From assembly GCA_964474825.1 (NCBI GenBank), contig CAYYWQ010000001.1, positions 677,609 through 741,608 of the forward strand: a DNA stretch of 64,000 bases, in the 5' to 3' direction. How positions within the stretch are numbered: position 1 is the stretch's first letter; the number at the start of each line of letters is the position of its first letter. The notes under the pieces were generated by a model, which saw only the letters and a list, made by a program, of their open reading frames with translations, made no database searches and was not told where the DNA came from. Positions 1-57,885 of this stretch are shown here, in pieces. The translations under genes were made by a program, and so were the position numbers. The DNA comes from an uncultured Candidatus Saccharibacteria bacterium. GTDB taxonomy: Bacteria; Patescibacteriota; Doudnabacteria; UBA920.

Positions 1-3000
1 AGTTCACCGTTCCCCCGCCCTGTAAAATCTGGGTCGGAGTTATAGACGAAATGTTGTAGCCCGGCGGAGGCGTGCAGACCAGAGTTTTGCTGCCTGCGTC
101 CTGGTTGGTCAAAATAGACGGCGCTGAAATGCTAACGCCGTTGAGAGTACAGAGTATTGTACGACTGTATCCGGATACGCTATTGTTAACCGTGCCGGTA
201 GTTGGCTGAGTGGGTTGAGTAGGCTGTGTAACTGTAGCCGTCCCACCCCCGCCGTAGAGCGTTGCAACTTCAGAAGCGGTGAGCGGCCGGCTGAACACAG
301 CGAAGTCGTCCAGAGAGCCGGCGAGGTTGATGCCGTAAGCGTTACCGTACCACGCGCCAATAATGAAATTGCCGAAGGAGTCGGCAACCGAAGGTGCAAT
401 GGCTGCGGAGTTGTCGAGAACGCCGTTAATGTAGCTCCTCATGGTAACACCGTCGTATGTAATGGCCACGTGGTGCCATGAGTTAAGCGGAATGGCCGTG
501 TTGCCATTGAAAATGGCCGTGTTTCCCCCGTCAACATAGGCACGGAGTTTTTGGTTCGCTAGGACTACAAATTCGTAATCTTTGTAGTTATTTGCGCCGA
601 GGTCCTTGTTGGTTGTGAAGATCTGGTGAAATTTAGCCTGACTCTGGTAGAGCCAGAAAATTATTGAGAAATTCTTGGCCGTAAAGGAAATGGGAGAGGT
701 CGGGATAATGTGGCTGCTTGAGCCGTTGAAGTTCGCGGCCTGTTCGAACTTGCCGGAACTGTAGGTGATGTTGGTGGGTGTTGCGTTGTTAGTCCCCTTG
801 CAGGTGTTCGTGTTGCCGTTGAAACTGTAGCAAACCATGAGACTGGGGTCTAAAGCAAGCGAGGTTTGGGAGAACGGGATGGGGCCGGAAACAACTGCCG
901 GAGCTACCGTAAAGGTAGCCGAAGCATTGGACCAGGCTCCGCTGTCGGTGTTGCGAAATTTTAGGTAGTGGTCGCCCGCGGCAAGTTGGACTTTTTGAAG
1001 GACCATACCGGAAGCAGTGACATTGGCGAGTAGGGAGTCAGGATGCCTGCAGCCGGCAGTACAAGCGCCGGTGTCAAACACCCAAGCCTGAATTTTTCCT
1101 AAAACAAAGTTGGTTGCGTTTGTAACCGTAATGTCAAACGGCGTGTTAGCAACCGGGTTAAGCGTTTGAATGTTTCCGGGGGTTGGCGTTGGAGGTTGCT
1201 GGGGCAATACTGAAGGCGGCTGGGCAATACCCGTACCTCCCCCACCACCATAAAGCATGGAAACCTCAGTGGAGGTTAACGGACGGTTGAAGATCGCAAG
1301 GTCATCCAGAGAACCGTTGAAGTTCGCGCCGTAAGCGTCATTAAAGAAAGCACCGACAATGCTGTTGCCGTAAGAGTCAGTTACGGAAGCCGGCACAGCA
1401 CCGGAGTTGTCCAAGACGCCGTCAACGTAGATCTTCATGGTCACGCCGTCGTAGGTAATGGCAACGTGGTGCCAAGTGTTGAGCGAAAGAACAGTGTTGC
1501 CGGTGAAGTACGCCGTGTCGGCGCCGTCAACGTAAACCCTGACTTTCTGAGAATCAATAAGGGCGAACTCGTAGCCCTTGTAGCGGTTGAGCAGTGTATC
1601 CTTGGCAGTTACCAAAATGTCCGCGTACTTGGCGAAGGTCTGGTAAGTCCACACCACAACTGAAAACTGCTTGCTAGGCAGGAACGAAATGGGAGTGGGA
1701 AGGGTGATGTGGCTGTTGCTGCCGTTAAAGCTAGCAGCTTGGCCATGTTTGCCTGCAACATAAGTAATGTTAGCAGGCACGCCGTTGTTGGTGCCCTTGC
1801 TGTCGTTGGTATTGTTGTTGAAGCTGGCGTACCACAACAAGCTCGATTCGGTAGCGAGTGAAGTGGAGGAAAGCGCCCCGGGTACAGAAGGTAGAACGGG
1901 GGCGTTAATTTGCACCGAGCAATTTGCAGTGGCAGCTTGTTTAGGACTGCCGCTGTCCGTTACCGTGAACGTTGCGCTGCCGAAACCGGCAGGCGTGGAA
2001 GTGGTTGTAGCATAGGTGGCGGTTGTGCCGCTACCGGAAACCACTTTGCCCCAAACCCCCGAAACCGCACCCGTGCCGCCCGTGTAACTGCCGGTAAAGA
2101 CAGTCGACTGCCCAGCAGTTATAACAGCCGGGTTGGCGGAGCAGGTGGGAATAAGCGTTGGCGGCGGCTGAAGTCCCGCTGCAGCAGTACGGACGACTGA
2201 GAGATCTTTAACGTGCAAGGTGTTGTCACCCTGCGACTCAATCTCCAAGTATAAGCCGTCCATTAAATCAGAAGCAACGGACCAGGTCGCACCACCGACT
2301 GACATGGACACTGTATTGTTAGTTTTGGTTATAGTTAGAAGTTTCCAGCCTCCGAAGTTACTAGCGGTTGAATTGATCGTCACCAAATTCGGAAAAGTTT
2401 CTACCGAATTCTTGACAGAATCTATGGTCAGAGCGAGGATGGTGGAGTCTTTTAATGCTTTCTTCAAGCTAAAGATAGACTTCCCACCACCAATGTTGGT
2501 GTTGATGAAAAATGTAATATCAACCGGCCCGACGAACACCCGCCGTGTTCTTAAGGTAACACTGCCGTTCACAGTAGCGGGATACATTCCCCCTCCTGAA
2601 AACAAGTAGGTGTGGGAATTAAACAGCAACACTCCTGCGCTTTGGATTGCCGTGGAGTTGCTGATTGTTGCGGAGTCACTGGTCTGCAACCAGTTACCCG
2701 TGTAATCCGCCGACCGAAAACTGTCCTTCAAGTAGCAGTTGGTATCGCCGCCGCATCCAGGGTCGGGAAGGGAGTCTTCCAGATGCTGGAAAATTTGCTT
2801 CTGGGTGTTGGAATTATCGGTCATGTAGGTCGGGAGTAGATGAGCCTTAACCGAATAACCAACATTGACGGCGTTCAATGCTGCGGCACCAAGTGACAAA
2901 CTCGGCACCACAACATATGTGGTAATACAAGACAGCAAGCTGTCTCGAACATTCCAAGGCATGGCGGACTCCGGAACCCGAACAAAAGCCGGAGCGAAGT

Positions 3001-3670
3001 GAATGAAGTCATTGCAGTGCGTGGTATACTTTTGCCGACCGTCAGCCACATTGTTGGCTGGAGTTGCAATACCGACCACGGAAAGGTAGTTGGCGTTGGG
3101 TAACTGTTTACTCTTTCCGTCCGCGTTGCGGAGACGGATACCATATTCCAAGTTAGCGTAAAAGTTTCCCTGGCTGTGACCAACAAGAACAACGTAGTAA
3201 CCCTTGCTCCAAAAGTCCAACACGACTTGATCTAAGGTTGCCAGATCAGAATCGGCTTTGAACTGATCATCCTGGAATCCCAAGGCCGCTGCCATAAAAG
3301 ATTTATGGGCTTGGGACTGTTGGTTAAGCAGGTTAAGATCGTTGAGATACTTGTCGACCTCCTGCATACCAATTTGGTCAATTGCCTGATTGATGTCGCC
3401 TCTGCCAAGCAGAGTCTTGAGCAGGCCGGAACTTTGGTTGTGGACCGCTTTAAATTCCACGCAAGAGGAACTTAGACCAGGGTTAGAGGCCATAAACCTT
3501 GCTTTGATCTGGTCAACAAAGTCTTGCCATATTTTACTATCCGGTACCAAAATCCCATTGGCCCAAACAAATGCAGTCTTGCCGTAGGGGCAATCCTGCG
3601 CCAAAACCAGGCCACTGGACGAAACCAGCAACCAAAACAAAAACAAAATACGGCCTAAGCCGCTTTTCAT
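1..3670 (-). CDS. Large secreted multidomain protein, 5' part only (C-terminus beyond window edge). Contains a signal peptide, a lipase-like alpha/beta-hydrolase domain, a Thr/Gly-rich Ig-like linker and two tandem LamG-type (concanavalin A-like, Laminin_G_3-like) jelly-roll domains.
   Basis: The minus-strand frame is open from ATG at 3668-3670 (AGGAG-like RBS ~9 nt upstream) to position 1 with no stop. It is missing from the ORF track because the stop is outside the window. Features read from my translation: N-terminal MKSGLGRILFLFWLLVSSSGLVLAQ signal; nucleophile-elbow motif VLVGHSQGNFYANLEY; two diverged repeats each ending ...WHHVAITYDGVTM(K/R).Y(V/I)(D/N)GVLDNS....GSLDD(L/F)A(I/V)F(N/S)RPLT..EV..LYGGGG, the hallmark C-terminal strands of LamG_3 domains. 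The region is visibly more GC-rich than its neighbours. Confidence 0.8.
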   Translation of the reverse strand, partial: MKSGLGRILFLFWLLVSSSGLVLAQDCPYGKTAFVWANGILVPDSKIWQDFVDQIKARFMASNPGLSSSCVEFKAVHNQSSGLLKTLLGRGDINQAIDQIGMQEVDKYLNDLNLLNQQSQAHKSFMAAALGFQDDQFKADSDLATLDQVVLDFWSKGYYVVLVGHSQGNFYANLEYGIRLRNADGKSKQLPNANYLSVVGIATPANNVADGRQKYTTHCNDFIHFAPAFVRVPESAMPWNVRDSLLSCITTYVVVPSLSLGAAALNAVNVGYSVKAHLLPTYMTDNSNTQKQIFQHLEDSLPDPGCGGDTNCYLKDSFRSADYTGNWLQTSDSATISNSTAIQSAGVLLFNSHTYLFSGGGMYPATVNGSVTLRTRRVFVGPVDITFFINTNIGGGKSIFSLKKALKDSTILALTIDSVKNSVETFPNLVTINSTASNFGGWKLLTITKTNNTVSMSVGGATWSVASDLMDGLYLEIESQGDNTLHVKDLSVVRTAAAGLQPPPTLIPTCSANPAVITAGQSTVFTGSYTGGTGAVSGVWGKVVSGSGTTATYATTTSTPAGFGSATFTVTDSGSPKQAATANCSVQINAPVLPSVPGALSSTSLATESSLLWYASFNNNTNDSKGTNNGVPANITYVAGKHGQAASFNGSNSHITLPTPISFLPSKQFSVVVWTYQTFAKYADILVTAKDTLLNRYKGYEFALIDSQKVRVYVDGADTAYFTGNTVLSLNTWHHVAITYDGVTMKIYVDGVLDNSGAVPASVTDSYGNSIVGAFFNDAYGANFNGSLDDLAIFNRPLTSTEVSMLYGGGGGTGIAQPPSVLPQQPPTPTPGNIQTLNPVANTPFDITVTNATNFVLGKIQAWVFDTGACTAGCRHPDSLLANVTASGMVLQKVQLAAGDHYLKFRNTDSGAWSNASATFTVAPAVVSGPIPFSQTSLALDPSLMVCYSFNGNTNTCKGTNNATPTNITYSSGKFEQAANFNGSSSHIIPTSPISFTAKNFSIIFWLYQSQAKFHQIFTTNKDLGANNYKDYEFVVLANQKLRAYVDGGNTAIFNGNTAIPLNSWHHVAITYDGVTMRSYINGVLDNSAAIAPSVADSFGNFIIGAWYGNAYGINLAGSLDDFAVFSRPLTASEVATLYGGGGTATVTQPTQPTQPTTGTVNNSVSGYSRTILCTLNGVSISAPSILTNQDAGSKTLVCTPPPGYNISSITPTQILQGGGTVN

Positions 3671-3817
3671 ACTTGTACACTCCTGAAATTCAGATTTGGA
3701 AAACAAAAACACAGACAGTATTAAGAACGCCTGCCTAAATGACTACCCAATGTTTCTCTTTCCCCTCCCGGTTACCAAAAATTATTGATAACCAGTATGA
3801 GGAAAGAGAAAATTTAT

Positions 3818-4648
3818 TTAATATTGATCTTTCACATTCTCACAGGAATAAATCGAACCTACGGGAGTGATATATGGTTTACCTTTGGTATCATTATCTT
3901 CAAATACTTTTTTTCGTTCTGGGGTATTTTTGACCATATACCATAGCTTGTCACTATTTGAATAATCCCTAAGACCTGTACCAAAAACAAGGTGATTGTA
4001 ACAGTCCTGAAAAGTAAACACTGAAACCATTAATTCTTTATAATGTTCATGGTCTCCTGTAGTGGTTATAACATCCTGTTCTTTTTTCACCATAGCCCTT
4101 AGCACTCTCCGTACTTCGTCGTTTCCCGGATACATAAAAACAATTTCTCTTTGCAAATCATCTCTTACTCCATCGTTGTCCGAGTCTATGCCCGCAAGAG
4201 TTGCCTTACCGGCCTCACCAGGATCGGGCGGAAGAGTAATTGAGGTATCCGTAATAGCAAACCTTACTACCGTCGCAGTTTTAAGGCCATTTACATATAG
4301 GCTAAAAGTGATGGTCTGGGGCTTCTTTAACAATTCTGGAGAAACTTGATAGCTTCCGGTAAAACCACCCTCAGTTTGTCTATCTAATAACACCTTTGAA
4401 CTCGAGGTTGTGGTAGCCAAAGATTTCAGAAAGGCACCCCATACAGGTAAACTGCTTTTAATCTTTAAGTTAAAGCTTAAAAGCGTTTGGCTCTTTGTAG
4501 TTGAGACTAAGACAGCCTCTGGACTAACCGTGGCGGAAATTACTTGTGGGGTCTGACTAAGAAAAACCAAACCTAACAATATTACTATTCCCACTGGGAC
4601 TGCCCACTTTAAATGGAATTTAAGCTTTGGTGTCATATTAATACACAA
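3818..4648 (-). CDS. Hypothetical secreted/membrane-anchored protein (N-terminal hydrophobic segment). The start may be the internal Met of MTPKLKF...
   Basis: 276-aa ORF; N-terminal KWAVPVGIVILLGLVFLS hydrophobic stretch; no recognisable catalytic motifs. Confidence 0.5.
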   Translation of the reverse strand: MCINMTPKLKFHLKWAVPVGIVILLGLVFLSQTPQVISATVSPEAVLVSTTKSQTLLSFNLKIKSSLPVWGAFLKSLATTTSSSKVLLDRQTEGGFTGSYQVSPELLKKPQTITFSLYVNGLKTATVVRFAITDTSITLPPDPGEAGKATLAGIDSDNDGVRDDLQREIVFMYPGNDEVRRVLRAMVKKEQDVITTTGDHEHYKELMVSVFTFQDCYNHLVFGTGLRDYSNSDKLWYMVKNTPERKKVFEDNDTKGKPYITPVGSIYSCENVKDQY

Positions 4649-12201: not shown

Positions 12202-13854
12202 ATGGAAATTATATCCAAGTTAGAATTTATTCTTCTGTTATGCGCCATAGCAATCAATGCTTTACTAGCTTGGGTTGTTTATACAAGTGACAAAAAAAGT
12301 GATACAAACAGACTTTACACAGTATTAAGTTTAAATATTTCTGTTTGGCTGATTATAAACTACATCTCTCACACAACCTTATTTTTAAGTAATAGTATTT
12401 ACTGGATTCGCCTAAGTTTGTTTTTTGCGCTTCCCATGAGCATGTTGTTCTTCCTGTTTGCCCATACAATACCGGAAAAAGTAATACGTATATCCAAACG
12501 GCAGTTAGTACTATTATTCGCGCTAACTGGATCGGCCATGCTGTTAACGATATCACCCTATACTTTCACCGAGGTCAAGCTGGTTAATGGTTCGCCTCTA
12601 CCCGTTACAGGTCCGGGAATAATTTATTTTGGATTCATATCAATTACCTACAGTCTTTTTGCTGCAATTACATTTTTCCGAAAATACAAGTCTTCGACTG
12701 GCGAACAACGACTCCAATTCAAATATATTATGTATGGCGTCTTGTCGATGATAGGCTTGATTACCACTACTATTTTCTTGCCGGTTATATTTTTTAGCAA
12801 CAATACCTTTCTTGGTTTATTGCCTCTCTACACGCTAATTTTTCTTACTATTTCGGCGTATGTAATCATTGGCTTACATTTATTCAAAGTAAAACTTATC
12901 GCCACTGAGGCCTTATTTTTTGCACTTTGGATAGGTCTTTTTTCTCAGGCATTAGGAAGAAATTCTGTTTCTGATCTTTTTGTAGGCTTTATTATGCTTT
13001 TTGGATTAACTGTTTTGGGATATTTACTTATCAATGGGGTTAAAAAGGAAGTTGAACAAAAAGAGCTATTAGAAGCTTTAACACAAGAGTTAGGTGATGC
13101 TAATGAGAAGCTTCAGAGTTTGGACAAGGCTAGGGCGGAGTTTATTTCTATTGCTAGCCACCAACTACGCACTCCCCCTTCCACTGTAAAATGGTATATG
13201 TCTTCCGTGCTTTCCGGGGATTTTGGAAGAATTTCGGCCAAAGTTTTAGAGCCTCTTAAAAAAGTAAACGAAACCAACAACCATTTAATTTCTTTAATTG
13301 AGGACATGTTAAACGTTTCGCGTATAGAACGCGGAAAAATGGAATTTTTATTTGAGCAGACTAATGTGCAGGACTTGGCCAAACAGGCTTTTGACCAGTT
13401 AATTCCTATGGCCAGCGACAAAAAACTAAAGTTTGATTTCGATTCCCCCAAAAAACCCTTACCAGAAATAATGGCAGACAAAGAAAAACTTAAGCAGGTT
13501 ATGAACAACCTAACAGATAACGCCTTAAAGTATACCAAGTCCGGCAGCGTTAAAGTTAAAATTTACGAAAAAGACGGAAATATTTTCTTTGAAGTCACAG
13601 ACAGCGGTAAAGGCATTAGCAAAGAAGACCGTGAAAGCATTTTCCAAAAATACACCAGAGGCAAAGAATCTGTTAAGCAAAGCGCGGGCCTGGGCCTTGG
13701 GCTTTATGTTGCCAAAATAATTATAGAGCAGCACAAAGGCAAAATTTGGGCCGAAAGCCCTGGCGAAGGCCAAGGCAGCACCTTTGCCTTCAGCGTCCCA
13801 ATTAAGAATGACTTAAAGGCTACTACGCTTGTTGACCTAGCCACACAAAAATAA
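12202..13854 (+). CDS. Sensor histidine kinase with an N-terminal multi-pass (about 7 TM) membrane domain. No adjacent response regulator in the window.
   Basis: Hydrophobic N-terminal ~290 aa, coiled-coil linker, H-box FISIASHQLRTPPSTV, N-box DNALKYT, G-boxes DSGKGISKE and GLGLGLYVAKII. Confidence 0.85.
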   Translation: MEIISKLEFILLLCAIAINALLAWVVYTSDKKSDTNRLYTVLSLNISVWLIINYISHTTLFLSNSIYWIRLSLFFALPMSMLFFLFAHTIPEKVIRISKRQLVLLFALTGSAMLLTISPYTFTEVKLVNGSPLPVTGPGIIYFGFISITYSLFAAITFFRKYKSSTGEQRLQFKYIMYGVLSMIGLITTTIFLPVIFFSNNTFLGLLPLYTLIFLTISAYVIIGLHLFKVKLIATEALFFALWIGLFSQALGRNSVSDLFVGFIMLFGLTVLGYLLINGVKKEVEQKELLEALTQELGDANEKLQSLDKARAEFISIASHQLRTPPSTVKWYMSSVLSGDFGRISAKVLEPLKKVNETNNHLISLIEDMLNVSRIERGKMEFLFEQTNVQDLAKQAFDQLIPMASDKKLKFDFDSPKKPLPEIMADKEKLKQVMNNLTDNALKYTKSGSVKVKIYEKDGNIFFEVTDSGKGISKEDRESIFQKYTRGKESVKQSAGLGLGLYVAKIIIEQHKGKIWAESPGEGQGSTFAFSVPIKNDLKATTLVDLATQK

Positions 13855-13858
13855 CATA

Positions 13859-13968
13859 GGACTTCCACACCGCTACTTTTCTGGACTGGCGGAACTTGTC
13901 ACCGTAGATAAACTACGCCTCCAAACATCCTCAGAAAATGCCTCGAACTTGGCTCAGTGTGGAAGCCC
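13859..13968 (+). ncRNA. Candidate structured RNA element (copy 1), of unknown family, followed by an intrinsic terminator
   Basis: A ~110-nt intergenic segment closed by the 9-bp inverted repeat CTTCCACAC/GTGTGGAAG, with an internal conserved hairpin CGTAG-ATAAA-CTACG. Three sequence blocks are conserved, in reverse complement, at 57428..57650. Confidence 0.35.
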
Positions 13969-13972
13969 TATC

Positions 13973-14004
13973 AAAAAAACTCTTGTTAAAACAAGAGTTT
14001 TTTT
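13973..14004 (+). terminator. Rho-independent terminator
   Basis: AAAAAAACTCTTGTT-AAA-ACAAGAGTTTTTTT: a perfect stem followed by a T-tract. Confidence 0.65.
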
Positions 14005-21926: not shown

Positions 21927-22030
21927 AAAATTACAAGTTAATGTCTACTTAGAACCTAACTTAAAAATACTTCGGGCTGCAATTCCATAATTTTGACGGC
22001 TTGTATCAAAAAATTTTTCCGCTTATGCCT

Positions 22031-22114
22031 CCGGCTAAACATCAAAATTTGTTTGAGCCCAATCCGCTCAAAATTCTGAAATTTCGCCTACAAATTATTT
22101 TTAAGATAGCTTCT
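22031..22114 (+). repeat. Copy A of an ~85-nt intergenic repeat element (also at 36452..36614), ending about 55 nt upstream of the rluB-like start
   Basis: CCGGCTAAACATCAAAATTTGTTTGAGCCCAATCCGCTCAAAATTCTGAAATTTCGCCTACAAATTATTTTTAAGATAGCTTCT is about 90% identical to the reverse complement of 36452..36545 and about 75% identical to 36546..36614. Confidence 0.5.
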
Positions 22115-36451: not shown

Positions 36452-36614
36452 TAGAAGCTATTTTAAAAATAATTTGTAGGCGAAATTGTCAGAATTTTGA
36501 GCAGATTGGGCCAAATAAATTTTGATGTTTAACTATAGTTAAGCGGAAAAATTTTTTGGGCCAAGATGCCGAAATTCTGACAATTGCAGCCCAAAGGATT
36601 TTTAAGATAGCTTC
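36452..36614. repeat. Palindromic double copy (B', inverted, 36452..36545; B, direct, 36546..36614) of the ~85-nt element also found at 22031..22114
   Basis: See the element at 22031..22114. Both copies end with TTTTTAAGATAGCTTCT facing outward. The direct copy ends about 30 nt upstream of the 36644 start codon. Confidence 0.5.
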
Positions 36615-36643
36615 TAACTGATCTTAATAATTAACAAACAATA

Positions 36644-55887: not shown

Positions 55888-57378
55888 CTATTTAGTATGC
55901 CACTGTCGACCGTCCCTAGCCAAAAATTCGTCCGCTTCTTTTGGGCCGTTGCTTCCGGCCTTATAAATTTGCAGCGGAAGATCTTTAAAAGCGGAGTTTT
56001 GGGTAATACTGTCCACAAATTTCCAGGCTGCTTCAATTTCGTCACTGCGGATAAACAAACGCTGGTCCCCTTCCATAAAATCCAACAGCAGACGTTCATA
56101 AGCAGAAGGAATTTCCGAGGCAAAATTTTTCTGGTAACCAAACTCGTAATCCCCCTGGTGAAGCTTAATTCCAAAACCGGGCTGTTTGTTGTTCAAATGC
56201 AAATTAACACTTTCGTCCGGCTGGATGCGGAACGTTAAAGTATTGGCGGCGCAGCCTTCAAACAGGCAGCGTGCCGGTTCACGGAAGTGAATGGTAATTT
56301 CCGTTAATTTTTTACTTAATTTTTTACCGCTGCGCAAATAAAACGGCACTCCGGCCCAGCGCGGCAAATTAATATAGGTTTTTAGTGAGAAAAAAGTTTC
56401 CGCGTTGCCGCCCGTGTCATTCAAAATTTTGGGTCCAATGTCTTTTTTGTAACCCTGGTACTGCCCCTTTACCAAACGCACAGGCAATTTTTGCTGGTCA
56501 AACAATTGCAAAGCATTAAGCACGCGCAATTTTTCGCTGCTTATCATATCCGCGGTTAACTGGTAAGGCTCTTCCATGGCAATTAACGCAAGCATTTGCA
56601 AAATGTGATTTTGCAAAAAATCTTTTAAAGCGCCGGTTTGTTCGTAATACATGGCGCGGCCACCCACTCCGTCTTTTTCTAAAACGGAAATTTCCACATG
56701 CTCAATAAAGCGGTTATTCCACAGGGGCTCAAAAATGCTGTTGGCAAAACGTACCACCATTAAATTCTGTACGGTTTCCTTGCCGGCATAATGGTCAATG
56801 CGGTAGATTTGTTCCTCGGTAAAATACTTGAGGAGCAATTTATTTAAGTCGCGTGCAGATTCCAAATTAAAACCAAAAGGCTTTTCCACCAAGATCCGCA
56901 CTTTGCGGTCATGGGAAGCGCAACTGGTTAAAAGCCCGTTCTCTTTTAAAATATGGGTAATGGAAGCAAAAAACTGCGGACTGGTCGCGAAATAATACAA
57001 ACGATTAAAGCATTTATGGGTCGGCTTTTCGCGCGTTTGCAAAAGCTTAGTTAAGGCGGCAAAAGATTCCGGCTTCTCAAAATCCCCTTCAAAGTAAACC
57101 AGGTGCTTTAAAAAATGCTGTCGTTGTTTTTTGCTAATTTTTTTTTGCGACCTGGATTTTTTTAAAATAAAATCCAAATACCCTGCCGCGTCCAGGGACC
57201 TTCTGCCTACACACACCAAAGTAAAATCTTTGGGGAGCATCCCTTGCCCATCCATGCGAAGCAGCGCTGGCAATAAATAATTGCCAGACAAATCACCCGT
57301 AGCGCCAAAAATAGTCAAAACCGTTGGCGGCAGGTTTAGGTCTAATTTATGGAATTTATTATTGCCGGACTTTTTCAT
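55888..57378 (-). CDS. zwf: Glucose-6-phosphate 1-dehydrogenase
   Basis: N-terminal NADP site LTIFGATGDL. Active-site RIDHYAGKETVQNLMVVRFANSIFEPLWN (RIDHYLGKE motif). Confidence 0.9.
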   Translation of the reverse strand: MKKSGNNKFHKLDLNLPPTVLTIFGATGDLSGNYLLPALLRMDGQGMLPKDFTLVCVGRRSLDAAGYLDFILKKSRSQKKISKKQRQHFLKHLVYFEGDFEKPESFAALTKLLQTREKPTHKCFNRLYYFATSPQFFASITHILKENGLLTSCASHDRKVRILVEKPFGFNLESARDLNKLLLKYFTEEQIYRIDHYAGKETVQNLMVVRFANSIFEPLWNNRFIEHVEISVLEKDGVGGRAMYYEQTGALKDFLQNHILQMLALIAMEEPYQLTADMISSEKLRVLNALQLFDQQKLPVRLVKGQYQGYKKDIGPKILNDTGGNAETFFSLKTYINLPRWAGVPFYLRSGKKLSKKLTEITIHFREPARCLFEGCAANTLTFRIQPDESVNLHLNNKQPGFGIKLHQGDYEFGYQKNFASEIPSAYERLLLDFMEGDQRLFIRSDEIEAAWKFVDSITQNSAFKDLPLQIYKAGSNGPKEADEFLARDGRQWHTK

Positions 57379-57427
57379 ATTCAGCTTTCGTTTATTGGAT
57401 ATTTATGTTATATTGAGTCAAGAATTA

Positions 57428-57650
57428 CACACTGAGCCAAGTTCGAGGCATTTTCTGACAATAGCTTGCTGGCCTAAGTCGGGCTTAGCCCGACTAGCGG
57501 CCAGCATAATGCTTCAGGATGTTTGGAGGCGTAGTCAGACTACGGCGACAAACACCGGAAGAAAATAACGAAGAAATTGGCCAGAGCTGCTTTTTTAAGG
57601 ATTCCCAATTCACTTGGGATCCAAAAAAAAGCAGCGGTGCGGAAATCTTG
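57428..57650 (-). ncRNA. Candidate structured RNA element (copy 2, expanded), in the zwf 5' region. Same family as 13859..13968.
   Basis: The reverse complement carries the three conserved blocks of copy 1: CCGCACCGCTGCTTTT; TTGTCGCCGTAG-TCTGA-CTACGCCTCCAAACATCCT; CAGAAAATGCCTCGAACTTGGCTCAGTGTG. Two inserted hairpins (GGATCCCAA-GTGAA-TTGGGAATCC and GCTGGCC...GGCCAGC) lie between the blocks. The 3' block ends about 45 nt before the zwf ATG. Confidence 0.35.
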
Positions 57651-57654
57651 ATAT

Positions 57655-57885
57655 ATGAGCTATTACGAACATCACAAACGATCAATTGTTAAAACCATTG
57701 GCTTTCATGCCTTAATAATATTGTCCGATGCTTTGGTAATTTTTATTCTTACCCACAAAGTCACCCTGACCCTTAGTATAACTATTTTCTCAAATCTGGT
57801 CAGCGGCCTAATTTACTTTATTCACGAACGAGCCTGGAATAATATTCACTGGGGCAAGAGTAAGCTGGAAATAGACTTGAAATAA
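57655..57885 (+). CDS. DUF2061-family small membrane protein
   Basis: HKRSIVKTIGFHALIILSDALVIFILT....FIHERAWNNI matches the DUF2061 two-helix pattern with a conserved HER(V/A)WN. Confidence 0.6.
   Translation: MSYYEHHKRSIVKTIGFHALIILSDALVIFILTHKVTLTLSITIFSNLVSGLIYFIHERAWNNIHWGKSKLEIDLK

Follow-up and report, generated by a model that had tools for sequence, protein, structure and literature searches.

The stretch of DNA analysed here, referred to as the window, comprises 64 kb of a contig from an uncultured Candidatus Saccharibacteria bacterium, with its genes split 32/32 between the two strands. Two related sequences reside within it. Copy 1 (13857-13970, plus strand, 114 nt) follows a histidine kinase gene (12202-13854, plus strand), which is co-oriented with it and ends, stop codon included, 2 nt short of the element. 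Copy 2 (57419-57650, minus strand, 232 nt) is located upstream of zwf, the gene for glucose-6-phosphate dehydrogenase (55888-57378, minus strand), which is likewise co-oriented and has its ATG 40 nt past the element. On the opposite side of copy 2 there is a divergent open reading frame (ORF) encoding DUF2061 (57655-57885, plus strand). Both sequences are probably degenerate copies of a non-autonomous DNA transposon of about 165 bp, a MITE, or miniature inverted-repeat transposable element, of the candidate phyla radiation (CPR). This assignment is favoured because the size, the lack of an ORF, the terminal inverted repeats, the target duplication, the copy number and the insertion polymorphism all fit.

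The two copies have three blocks in common, as the original prediction had proposed. A 30-mer, CAGAAAATGCCTCGAACTTGGCTCAGTGTG, is present at 13932-13961 of the plus strand and at 57428-57457 of the minus strand, and a 19-mer, CTACGCCTCCAAACATCCT, at 13913-13931 and 57516-57534, respectively. Each of the two occurs exactly twice in the window. This exact sharing was seen in 0 of 100 shuffles (chance expectation 0), and a blind repeat search of the window recovers the same arms as the inverted repeats I2 and I5. The third block, at the 5′ end, is shared in variant forms, CACACCGCTACTTTT and CGCACCGCTGCTTTT. The extra well-paired hairpins described for copy 2 are also seen in its sequence and fold, and the CGTAG/CTACG stem is retained with a different loop. 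Against shuffled controls, the minimum free energy fold has a z-score of -4.3 for copy 1 and -9.2 for copy 2. Both locations had been placed correctly; the limits assigned by a covariance model, which are those given above, are slightly wider than originally drawn.

The repeat unit is approximately 165 nt in length and about 40 distinct insertion sites have been found, hosted by metagenome-assembled genomes (MAGs) labelled Saccharibacteria or unclassified and by groundwater-type metagenomes. A 21-mer probe from the 3′ block, searched against 185,579 species-representative genomes, detected 19 loci, 18 of them element-bearing and distributed over four MAGs: 15 across the contigs of SKS1.bin76 and one in each of three MAGs labelled Candidatus Saccharibacteria. 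A profile search with nhmmer added two further copies in SKS1.bin76, which carries at least 17 copies on 14 contigs. A second, independent 21-mer probe, GGCCAAYTTCTTCGTTATTTT, was derived from a block that copy 1 lacks (the 5′ core block described below) and retrieved 28 metagenome loci with much more diverse copies. The covariance model R1 was built from 21 non-redundant full copies and searched against 333 kb of loci and the window. This search, which had been suggested as a means of finding further instances, gave 45 sense-strand matches of 78-193 bits in the loci; antisense matches reach only 22-37 bits. In the window, the only two matches are the known copies. A locus of the Riflebacteria (L011) gave a marginal, partial nhmmer match (E=1.3e-4) and no covariance-model match, and was judged to be a chance or coding-sequence match as opposed to a family member. 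No matching sequence was found in viral-contig, phage or plasmid collections. As far as sampled, the family is confined to Saccharibacteria-like Patescibacteria.

Near-identical copies with intact target duplications are found in one MAG, and the family has multiplied recently in at least one genome. In the window strain, the short-read contigs of the Logan collection (L001, L002, L022, L023 and L024) all end inside the element, either at the shared 30-mer (13932) or in the 5′ core block. This reveals that the repeat fragments de Bruijn assemblies. As the contigs break within the element, and one does so in a block that copy 1 lacks, further copies are suggested elsewhere in the genome of the window strain or in its community. 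A related observation concerns two element copies whose flanks are reciprocally swapped between samples, at 99.7-100% identity. L026 consists of the left flank of L049 and the right flank of L037, and L050 is the converse. Either copies have recombined homologously (an inversion), or the repeat has given rise to assembly chimeras.

The family carries the hallmarks of transposition. MITEs are defined as small elements, generally under 200 bp and up to about 400 bp, with terminal inverted repeats and a target duplication (PMC3184786). Full copies of the family measure 162-168 nt, optional hairpins extending some to as much as 262 nt, and essentially all of them are bounded by terminal inverted repeats of 13-15 bp, YAGGACTTACGCAC...GTGCGTAAGTCCTR. 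The terminus can also be written TAGGACTTACGCAC, and the ends read YAGGAC...GTCCTR. There is neither a transposase gene nor a conserved ORF; most of the insert lengths (19, 38, 39, 40 and 58 nt) are not divisible by three, and the sole ATG-led frame of the family comprises eight codons and is interrupted in some copies.

Target-site duplications are of a fixed length, with a perfect 5-bp duplication at 18 of 38 copies and a match of 4/5 at four more. When left flanks were paired with the right flanks of other copies, a perfect 5-mer was observed in 1% of cases (binomial p about 3e-26). The duplicated 5-mers are AT-rich and variable, for example TATAT, TAAAT, ATAAA, AATTA, CTGTA, AATAT, TTTTA, TTATC, TAAGA, TGATT, AAATG and ATAAT. 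An all-against-all protein comparison of 358 flanking ORFs supplied syntenic pairs, and through these a filled and an empty site were identified in two related metagenome contigs. At 690-856 of L045, the element lies between two genes with AGTAA duplicated, whereas the orthologues in L039 (88-94% identical at the protein level) are separated by a 47-nt spacer without the element, and the flanks align on both sides. The family is thus dispersed in multiple copies with presence/absence variation at orthologous sites. A MITE had been listed in the original prediction among the outcomes that would speak against its RNA reading, and the terminal inverted repeats, the duplications and the filled and empty sites are precisely the features of one.

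Alongside these hallmarks, the family displays a conserved single-strand fold. RNAalifold, applied to an alignment of 21 diverse copies (A1), gives 60 base pairs in helices P1 to P6 around a three-way junction. P1 is a 13-bp closing helix formed by the two terminal repeats, P2 is a side hairpin and P3-P4-P5-P6 constitute a long arm. Compensatory changes on both sides are observed in 26 of the 60 pairs, and 95.8% of cells are paired. In 500 column shuffles, the observed values were never reached, and sliding the 3′ partners by 1-3 columns leaves 3-8 such pairs. The base of P2, for example, appears as GCCGC/GCGGC, GCCAC/GTGGC and GCTGC/GCAGC across the family. The hairpin loops and P1/P2 are variable; the P3/P4 strands, GGCCAATTTCTTCGTTATTTT and AAAATGCCTCGAACTTGGCTC, are almost invariant, their 3x3 internal loop included, and make up a near-invariant core of 42 nt. 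As P3/P4 are nearly invariant amid an otherwise covarying fold, this appears to point to a sequence-specific constraint beyond pairing. The claim that the element resembles a structured RNA is therefore upheld as regards a conserved, covarying fold with variable hairpins at fixed sites, but not as regards a gene-specific, cis-regulatory or ligand-sensing RNA.

The fold matches no known RNA family, as had been anticipated. Rfam 15 was scanned with the whole window at gathering thresholds, with each window copy at E<=10 and with four canonical copies at E<=1. The first of these scans returned tRNAs only; the other two gave no relevant match, only chance hairpins, and none of these copies came near the gathering score of any family. 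Weak hairpin-type matches around copy 1 are confined to the terminator-like hairpin that follows it.

Extra hairpins are confined to a small number of fixed sites, within loops or next to them. The 3′ loop between P4 and P5 holds an insert in window copy 2, L007, L035 and L039, and the 5′ loop at the same place holds one in L039 and L046. Inserts are also present on the 5′ side of P3/P4 (L007 and L020), on the 3′ side of P3/P4 (L046) and in the P2 loop (L034). The P4/P5 inserts of L007 and L035 differ from that of copy 2. In the case of L007, the P4/P5 loop houses a 19-nt perfect palindrome, CTGCCTGCCGGCAGGCAGG, at 170-189, a variant of which lies inside the element in L035. The palindrome is also free-standing at 634-653 of L028 and 1790-1809 of L029, and because it is found on its own in the contigs of these other organisms, this suggests a separate, tiny palindromic repeat that is able to land inside the element.

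Copy 1 had been described as the compact form of the structure. However, it is without about 50 positions of the consensus, and in the R1 match (38.6 bits, E=3e-7) 40 model positions are absent and many pairs are broken; nhmmer aligns it to model positions 84-165 only. P1 and the P6 hairpin are still there, P2 is reduced to its 5′ half and loop, and P3, P4 and P5 to their 3′ strands. With the partner strands lost (the 3′ half in the case of P2, the 5′ strand in the case of the other three), half of the consensus helices cannot form. Its 5′ terminal inverted repeat, the 5′ strand of P1, is TAGGACTTCCACAC at 13857-13870, which is homologous to the family terminus YAGGACTTACGCAC and pairs with 13957-13970. 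The latter is the 3′ terminal inverted repeat, GTGTGGAAGCCCTA, identified both by reading of the sequence and by R1. The remnant of P2 is GCTACTTTTCTGGACTGGCGGA, comparable to L029 and L009. The P6 hairpin, CACCGTAG-ATAAA-CTACGCC, is located at 13900-13919, and its helix covaries across the family (alignment columns 103-109 with 115-121). The 3′ core block, CAGAAAATGCCTCGAACTTGGCTCA, comprises the 3′ strands of P4 and P3 at 13932-13956; it has the same letters in copy 2 and is nearly invariant in the 21 diverse copies. An analogous deletion that likewise begins in the P2 loop is found in L014, a copy of SKS1.bin76. Copy 1 is an internally deleted relic whose deletion begins in the P2 loop.

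Copy 2 possesses the complete P1-P6 architecture, together with a 58-nt optional hairpin and an enlarged P2 hairpin. It is matched by R1 over model positions 1-164 (93.5 bits, E=5e-20) and is also found by nhmmer. All of its parts are on the minus strand. The P2 hairpin branch of the fold, GCTGCTTTTTTTT..GGATCCCAA-GTGAA-TTGGGAATCC..AAAAAAGCAGC, extends over 57586-57635. The near-invariant 5′ core block, GGCCAATTTCTTCGTTATTTTC at 57561-57582, consists of the 5′ strands of P3 and P4; it is the block that is absent from copy 1 and that served as the independent probe for the 28 metagenome loci. The near-invariant 3′ core block at 57433-57457 matches copy 1 exactly. The 58-nt hairpin lies inside the P4/P5 internal loop at 57458-57515, and an insert resides at the equivalent site in L039/L042. 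As this insert is 92.6% identical and sits at the same site in another organism, the hairpin marks a long subfamily, to which copy 2 belongs, and is not a local accident.

The element is strongly biased in its orientation relative to genes. Counts of neighbouring genes rest on crude ORF calls and cover 38 unique sites. Copies between co-directional genes number 25 in the sense against 3 in the antisense orientation (p=2.7e-5), and the upstream neighbour is co-oriented at 33 of the 38 sites. The stop codon of the upstream gene is located 2-30 nt before most copies, and often only 2-16 nt. It appears that this bias follows transcription rather than replication, because the two window copies are oppositely oriented and each agrees with its local gene block, while the GC skew of the window retains a single sign from 4 kb onward. 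No common function links the flanking genes, among which are those for a histidine kinase, an AviRa-type methyltransferase, zwf, DUF2061, EF-Tu, sigma-70, a PfkB kinase, an amidohydrolase, 2-hydroxyacid dehydrogenases, an SIS protein, a tRNA-editing protein and a glycosyltransferase. The proposed check of downstream gene classes as a pointer to a ligand found no common class.

In two different organisms, copies (L032, 22-186, and L040, 1373-1537) occupy the same position downstream of orthologous amidohydrolase genes whose proteins are 75% identical. Compensatory changes separate the P1 and P2 helices of the two copies, which share approximately 93% identity in the core. This may represent an ancient, vertically retained insertion under structural constraint, the alternative being independent insertion. 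It has also been noted that the element lies directly upstream of a gene of the 2-hydroxyacid dehydrogenase family in three organisms (L045, 690-856; L046, 3079-3326; L034, 375-583). The site upstream of this gene is empty in L039, a close relative of L045. The recurrence is probably a coincidence or an insertion hot spot.

No consistent promoter or terminator was found for the family. A hybrid promoter was called in L003, one of the two canonical copies scanned, with its -35 sequence (the conserved TTGGCT) in the element and its -10 sequence in the duplicated AT-rich target, directed outward. A -10-like hexamer is found at the right spacing in 15 of 41 copies, in comparison to 11 of 41 and 5 of 41 at control spacings.

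The element inserts into AT-rich intergenic spacers with duplication of a 5-bp target, and a mechanism can be proposed for this. A DDE-type transposase, supplied in trans, may recognize the 13-15-bp termini and make cuts staggered by 5 bp. Once inserted, the element would be co-transcribed with its neighbouring genes, and selection acting on the sense transcript could maintain both fold and orientation. The basis of such selection may be read-through that is tolerated in the sense direction, with antisense copies harmful in operons, or it may be protection or processing of mRNA 3′ ends, as has been proposed for ERIC and Correia elements (PMC3184786). A protein, either the transposase or an RNA-binding protein, probably binds the invariant P3/P4 core.

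Several observations weigh against the transposon assignment. No pair of matching termini at insertion-sequence-like spacing (0.3-6 kb apart) was detected in 409 kb of loci and the window, only noise, and no multi-copy, transposase-like protein is present among the 358 flanking ORFs. These searches thus brought up neither an autonomous partner nor a transposase whose termini match, and mobilisation in trans is a proposal. At both window copies, the target duplication is unclear: the flanks of copy 1 match at 3/5 positions, and at the corrected ends of copy 2 none is discernible by eye. The termini of both copies have diverged, P1 showing compensatory A:T to C:G and G:C to A:T changes, and because of these termini and the unclear duplications, we take the two to be probably old, degenerate members of the family. 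It is also the case that covarying helices, an invariant core and a strand bias are superfluous for a plain MITE, and these point to an extra constraint on the single-stranded form. The wobble pairs leave the folding strand ambiguous: there are 51 G.U cells, of which two invariant pairs account for 42, and 27 A.C cells. The two invariant G.U pairs favour the sense strand, and at the variable pairs A.C cells outnumber G.U.

A rival reading is that the element is a functional, perhaps host-beneficial structured RNA module that happens to be mobile, its fold and core being kept for an RNA function and not for transposition. Such a module could bind a protein, stabilise or process mRNA, or act as a catalytic RNA. 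We consider this possible, although the less likely reading. It would account for the strong covariation of all helices around an almost invariant 42-nt core, with variation left to the loops and P1/P2, and for a strand bias that follows transcription. The shared position of L032 and L040 downstream of orthologous genes and the restriction of optional hairpins to fixed sites in or beside loops, one of them common to different organisms, agree with it, as does retention in streamlined genomes of roughly 1 Mb (the contig noted below has 1.21 Mb). On the other hand, the family has no tie to any gene class, deleted copies such as copy 1 and L014 persist, and the near-identical copies with intact duplications in one MAG have the character of a recent selfish burst. 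Arm-to-arm template switching in palindromic DNA can imitate compensatory change, and at variable pairs there are more A.C than G.U cells. A more specific form of this idea is a doubtful one. It holds that the element is a mobile functional RNA rather than a transposon relic, with the P3/P4 helix and loop (GGCCAAUUUCUUCGUUAUUUU paired with AAAAUGCCUCGAACUUGGCUC) as a protein- or RNA-recognition module kept in sense operon transcripts. Such a module might control mRNA processing or decay, or it might serve the mobility of the element through an RNA or single-strand intermediate, a mechanism that has not been described for elements with terminal inverted repeats and target-site duplications.

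A riboswitch-like leader of the downstream gene, be it zwf or the rRNA methylase, with stems of variable length was the interpretation favoured by the original prediction. The conserved and covarying fold and the position of copy 2, 40 nt upstream of the zwf start codon, would suit such a leader, yet the context of the family contradicts it. At least 17 copies lie beside unrelated genes in a single genome, and most copies begin 2-30 nt past the stop codon of a co-oriented upstream gene, so that they do not form the 5′ untranslated region (UTR) of a coherent gene set. Target-site duplications and an empty orthologous site are features of a mobile repeat. The L014 locus of SKS1.bin76 shows partial synteny with the window, and no element was detected there in the short spacer upstream of the zwf homologue. 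Copy 1 lacks half of its helices and is cut off from the methylase gene by the terminator-like hairpin, and Rfam has no match to offer. A leader is therefore highly improbable. Equally remote is a different type of single-strand DNA element, such as an IS200/IS605-derived palindrome of the PATE/REP type, mobilised by a Y1 transposase, or a recombination site resembling the attC of integrons. Elements of both types are strand-specific and fold as single-stranded DNA. The conserved single-strand fold, the strong strand bias and the placement of copies immediately after stop codons are reminiscent of such elements. Y1 transposases, however, use a fixed target and leave no duplication; PATE/REP elements have no terminal inverted repeats and insert 3′ of a fixed 4-5-nt target, whereas the family has true terminal inverted repeats and variable duplicated 5-mers. 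By inspection, its termini (YAGGAC...GTCCTR) are unlike the R″/R′ cores of attC (RYYYAAC...GTTRRRY), and copies are dispersed singly among housekeeping genes with no cassette arrays; no integrase search was made. The opposite orientation of the window copies, where the GC skew keeps one sign, is also at variance with an element of this type.

The reading as a MITE has well-described parallels. The family behaves like the structured, co-transcribed MITEs of bacteria, namely ERIC/IRU, Correia/NEMIS and RUP, and is a member of none of these. ERIC/IRU elements (about 127 bp) are comparable in being small, non-coding and intergenic, in having terminal inverted repeats and a target duplication, and in being co-transcribed and often located at the 3′ ends of genes. 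Wilson and Sharp, in 2006, reportedly found ERIC to be unusually conserved between species, with longer and shorter variants that arise by internal insertions and deletions. Conservation across species and length variants due to insertions and deletions are also features of the present family. However, ERIC duplicates a TA dinucleotide instead of a 5-bp AT-rich target and forms a simple foldback instead of a three-way junction with the side hairpin P2; the present family resides in Patescibacteria and has a much stronger sense-orientation bias. ERIC RNA forms a long stem-loop that is co-transcribed, with proposed effects on mRNA stability (PMC3184786). Correia/NEMIS/CREE elements of Neisseria are multi-copy repeats with terminal inverted repeats and a target duplication that vary in presence between strains, are co-transcribed as structured RNA and can carry promoter elements at their ends (PMC3184786). 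At about 104-157 bp, they share with the family these multi-copy MITE features and presence/absence variation. They differ in that their repeats measure 26 bp, their duplication is TA, and they possess an IHF site and functional promoters; in the present family the repeats are 13-15 bp, the duplication is 5 bp, and no consistent promoter was found. The variable 5-bp duplication sets the family apart from both ERIC and Correia. No sequence similarity to either was seen, with no direct comparison to their consensus sequences made and no matching model in Rfam, and the resemblance is functional only. A precedent for bacterial MITEs that are co-transcribed and fold as RNA is thus available (PMC3184786).

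Non-autonomous elements related to the Tn3 family resemble the family in their 5-bp duplications in AT-rich DNA and their similar size range. Ends of the Tn3 family are about 38 bp in length and start with GGGG, and its 5-bp target duplications lie in AT-rich DNA. In contrast, the ends here start with YAGGAC and measure 13-15 bp, and no Tn3-type transposase was seen; membership is not claimed. The likeness to riboswitches and Rfam leaders, which is seen in the covarying multi-helix fold, conserved internal loops and variable peripheral hairpins, is offset by the mobility of the family, its multiple copies, its usual position 3′ of genes and the lack of a common downstream gene class.

Patescibacteria have streamlined genomes of about 1 Mb and are expected to carry little repetitive DNA. 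For Saccharibacteria or Patescibacteria, full-text literature searches turned up nothing relevant on MITEs or on repeats in intergenic DNA. The family indicates that streamlined CPR genomes can harbour a recently active non-autonomous transposon, which is unusual in its invariant core, its modular hairpins and its strong sense bias in such genomes. The element may mediate rearrangements, or at least assembly chimeras, and its covarying fold, invariant core and sense bias recommend it for the study of how operon transcripts come to tolerate or co-opt mobile repeats. It also provides a ready-made marker for strain typing and for quality control of assemblies in these uncultivated lineages. For annotation, it serves as a warning that conservation of structure alone is insufficient for calling a riboswitch.

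In the immediate neighbourhood of copy 1, a hairpin followed by a T-run, AAAAAAACTCTTGTT..AACAAGAGTTTTTTT, is located at 13973-14004 of the plus strand. It begins 2 nt after the copy and is not part of the repeat. The intrinsic terminator claimed at this point is convincing by eye, but the scan tool made no terminator call at 13973-14004. The hairpin probably acts as a bidirectional intrinsic terminator for the transcript of the histidine kinase, and it separates copy 1 from the downstream gene for the AviRa-type methyltransferase. As copy 1 starts 2 nt past the stop codon and ends 2 nt ahead of this hairpin, it would form part of the 3′ UTR of the histidine kinase.

Copy 2 occupies nearly the entire spacer between the DUF2061 ORF and zwf. 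The ATG of the DUF2061 ORF is only 4 nt from the 5′ end of the copy, and the ribosome-binding site and promoter of this ORF would consequently have to lie in the antisense strand of copy 2. No promoter was called in the 40 nt that separate copy 2 from the zwf ATG, and promoter and terminator scans were negative at both window copies. An NCBI contig of 1.21 Mb likewise encodes the zwf protein, indicating a host genome of about 1.2 Mb or larger. For an empty-site test of the window copies, no informative orthologous locus was found in the databases, the closest zwf homologue being about 72% identical, and exact-protein look-ups retrieved nothing but short same-strain contigs that break off at the repeat.

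Two further observations concern the window at large. Its first 4,000 positions (1-4000) have a GC content of 0.50, compared with 0.36-0.45 elsewhere. A long ORF on the minus strand, which continues past the start of the window, spans this region and is 58% identical to an ORF in L013. The window also holds a second, unrelated MITE-like family, represented by a 163-nt element at 36453-36615 with 18-bp terminal inverted repeats, AGAAGCTATCTTAAAAAT ... ATTTTTAAAATAGCTTCT, and by a related copy with a degenerate 5′ end at about 21951-22114.

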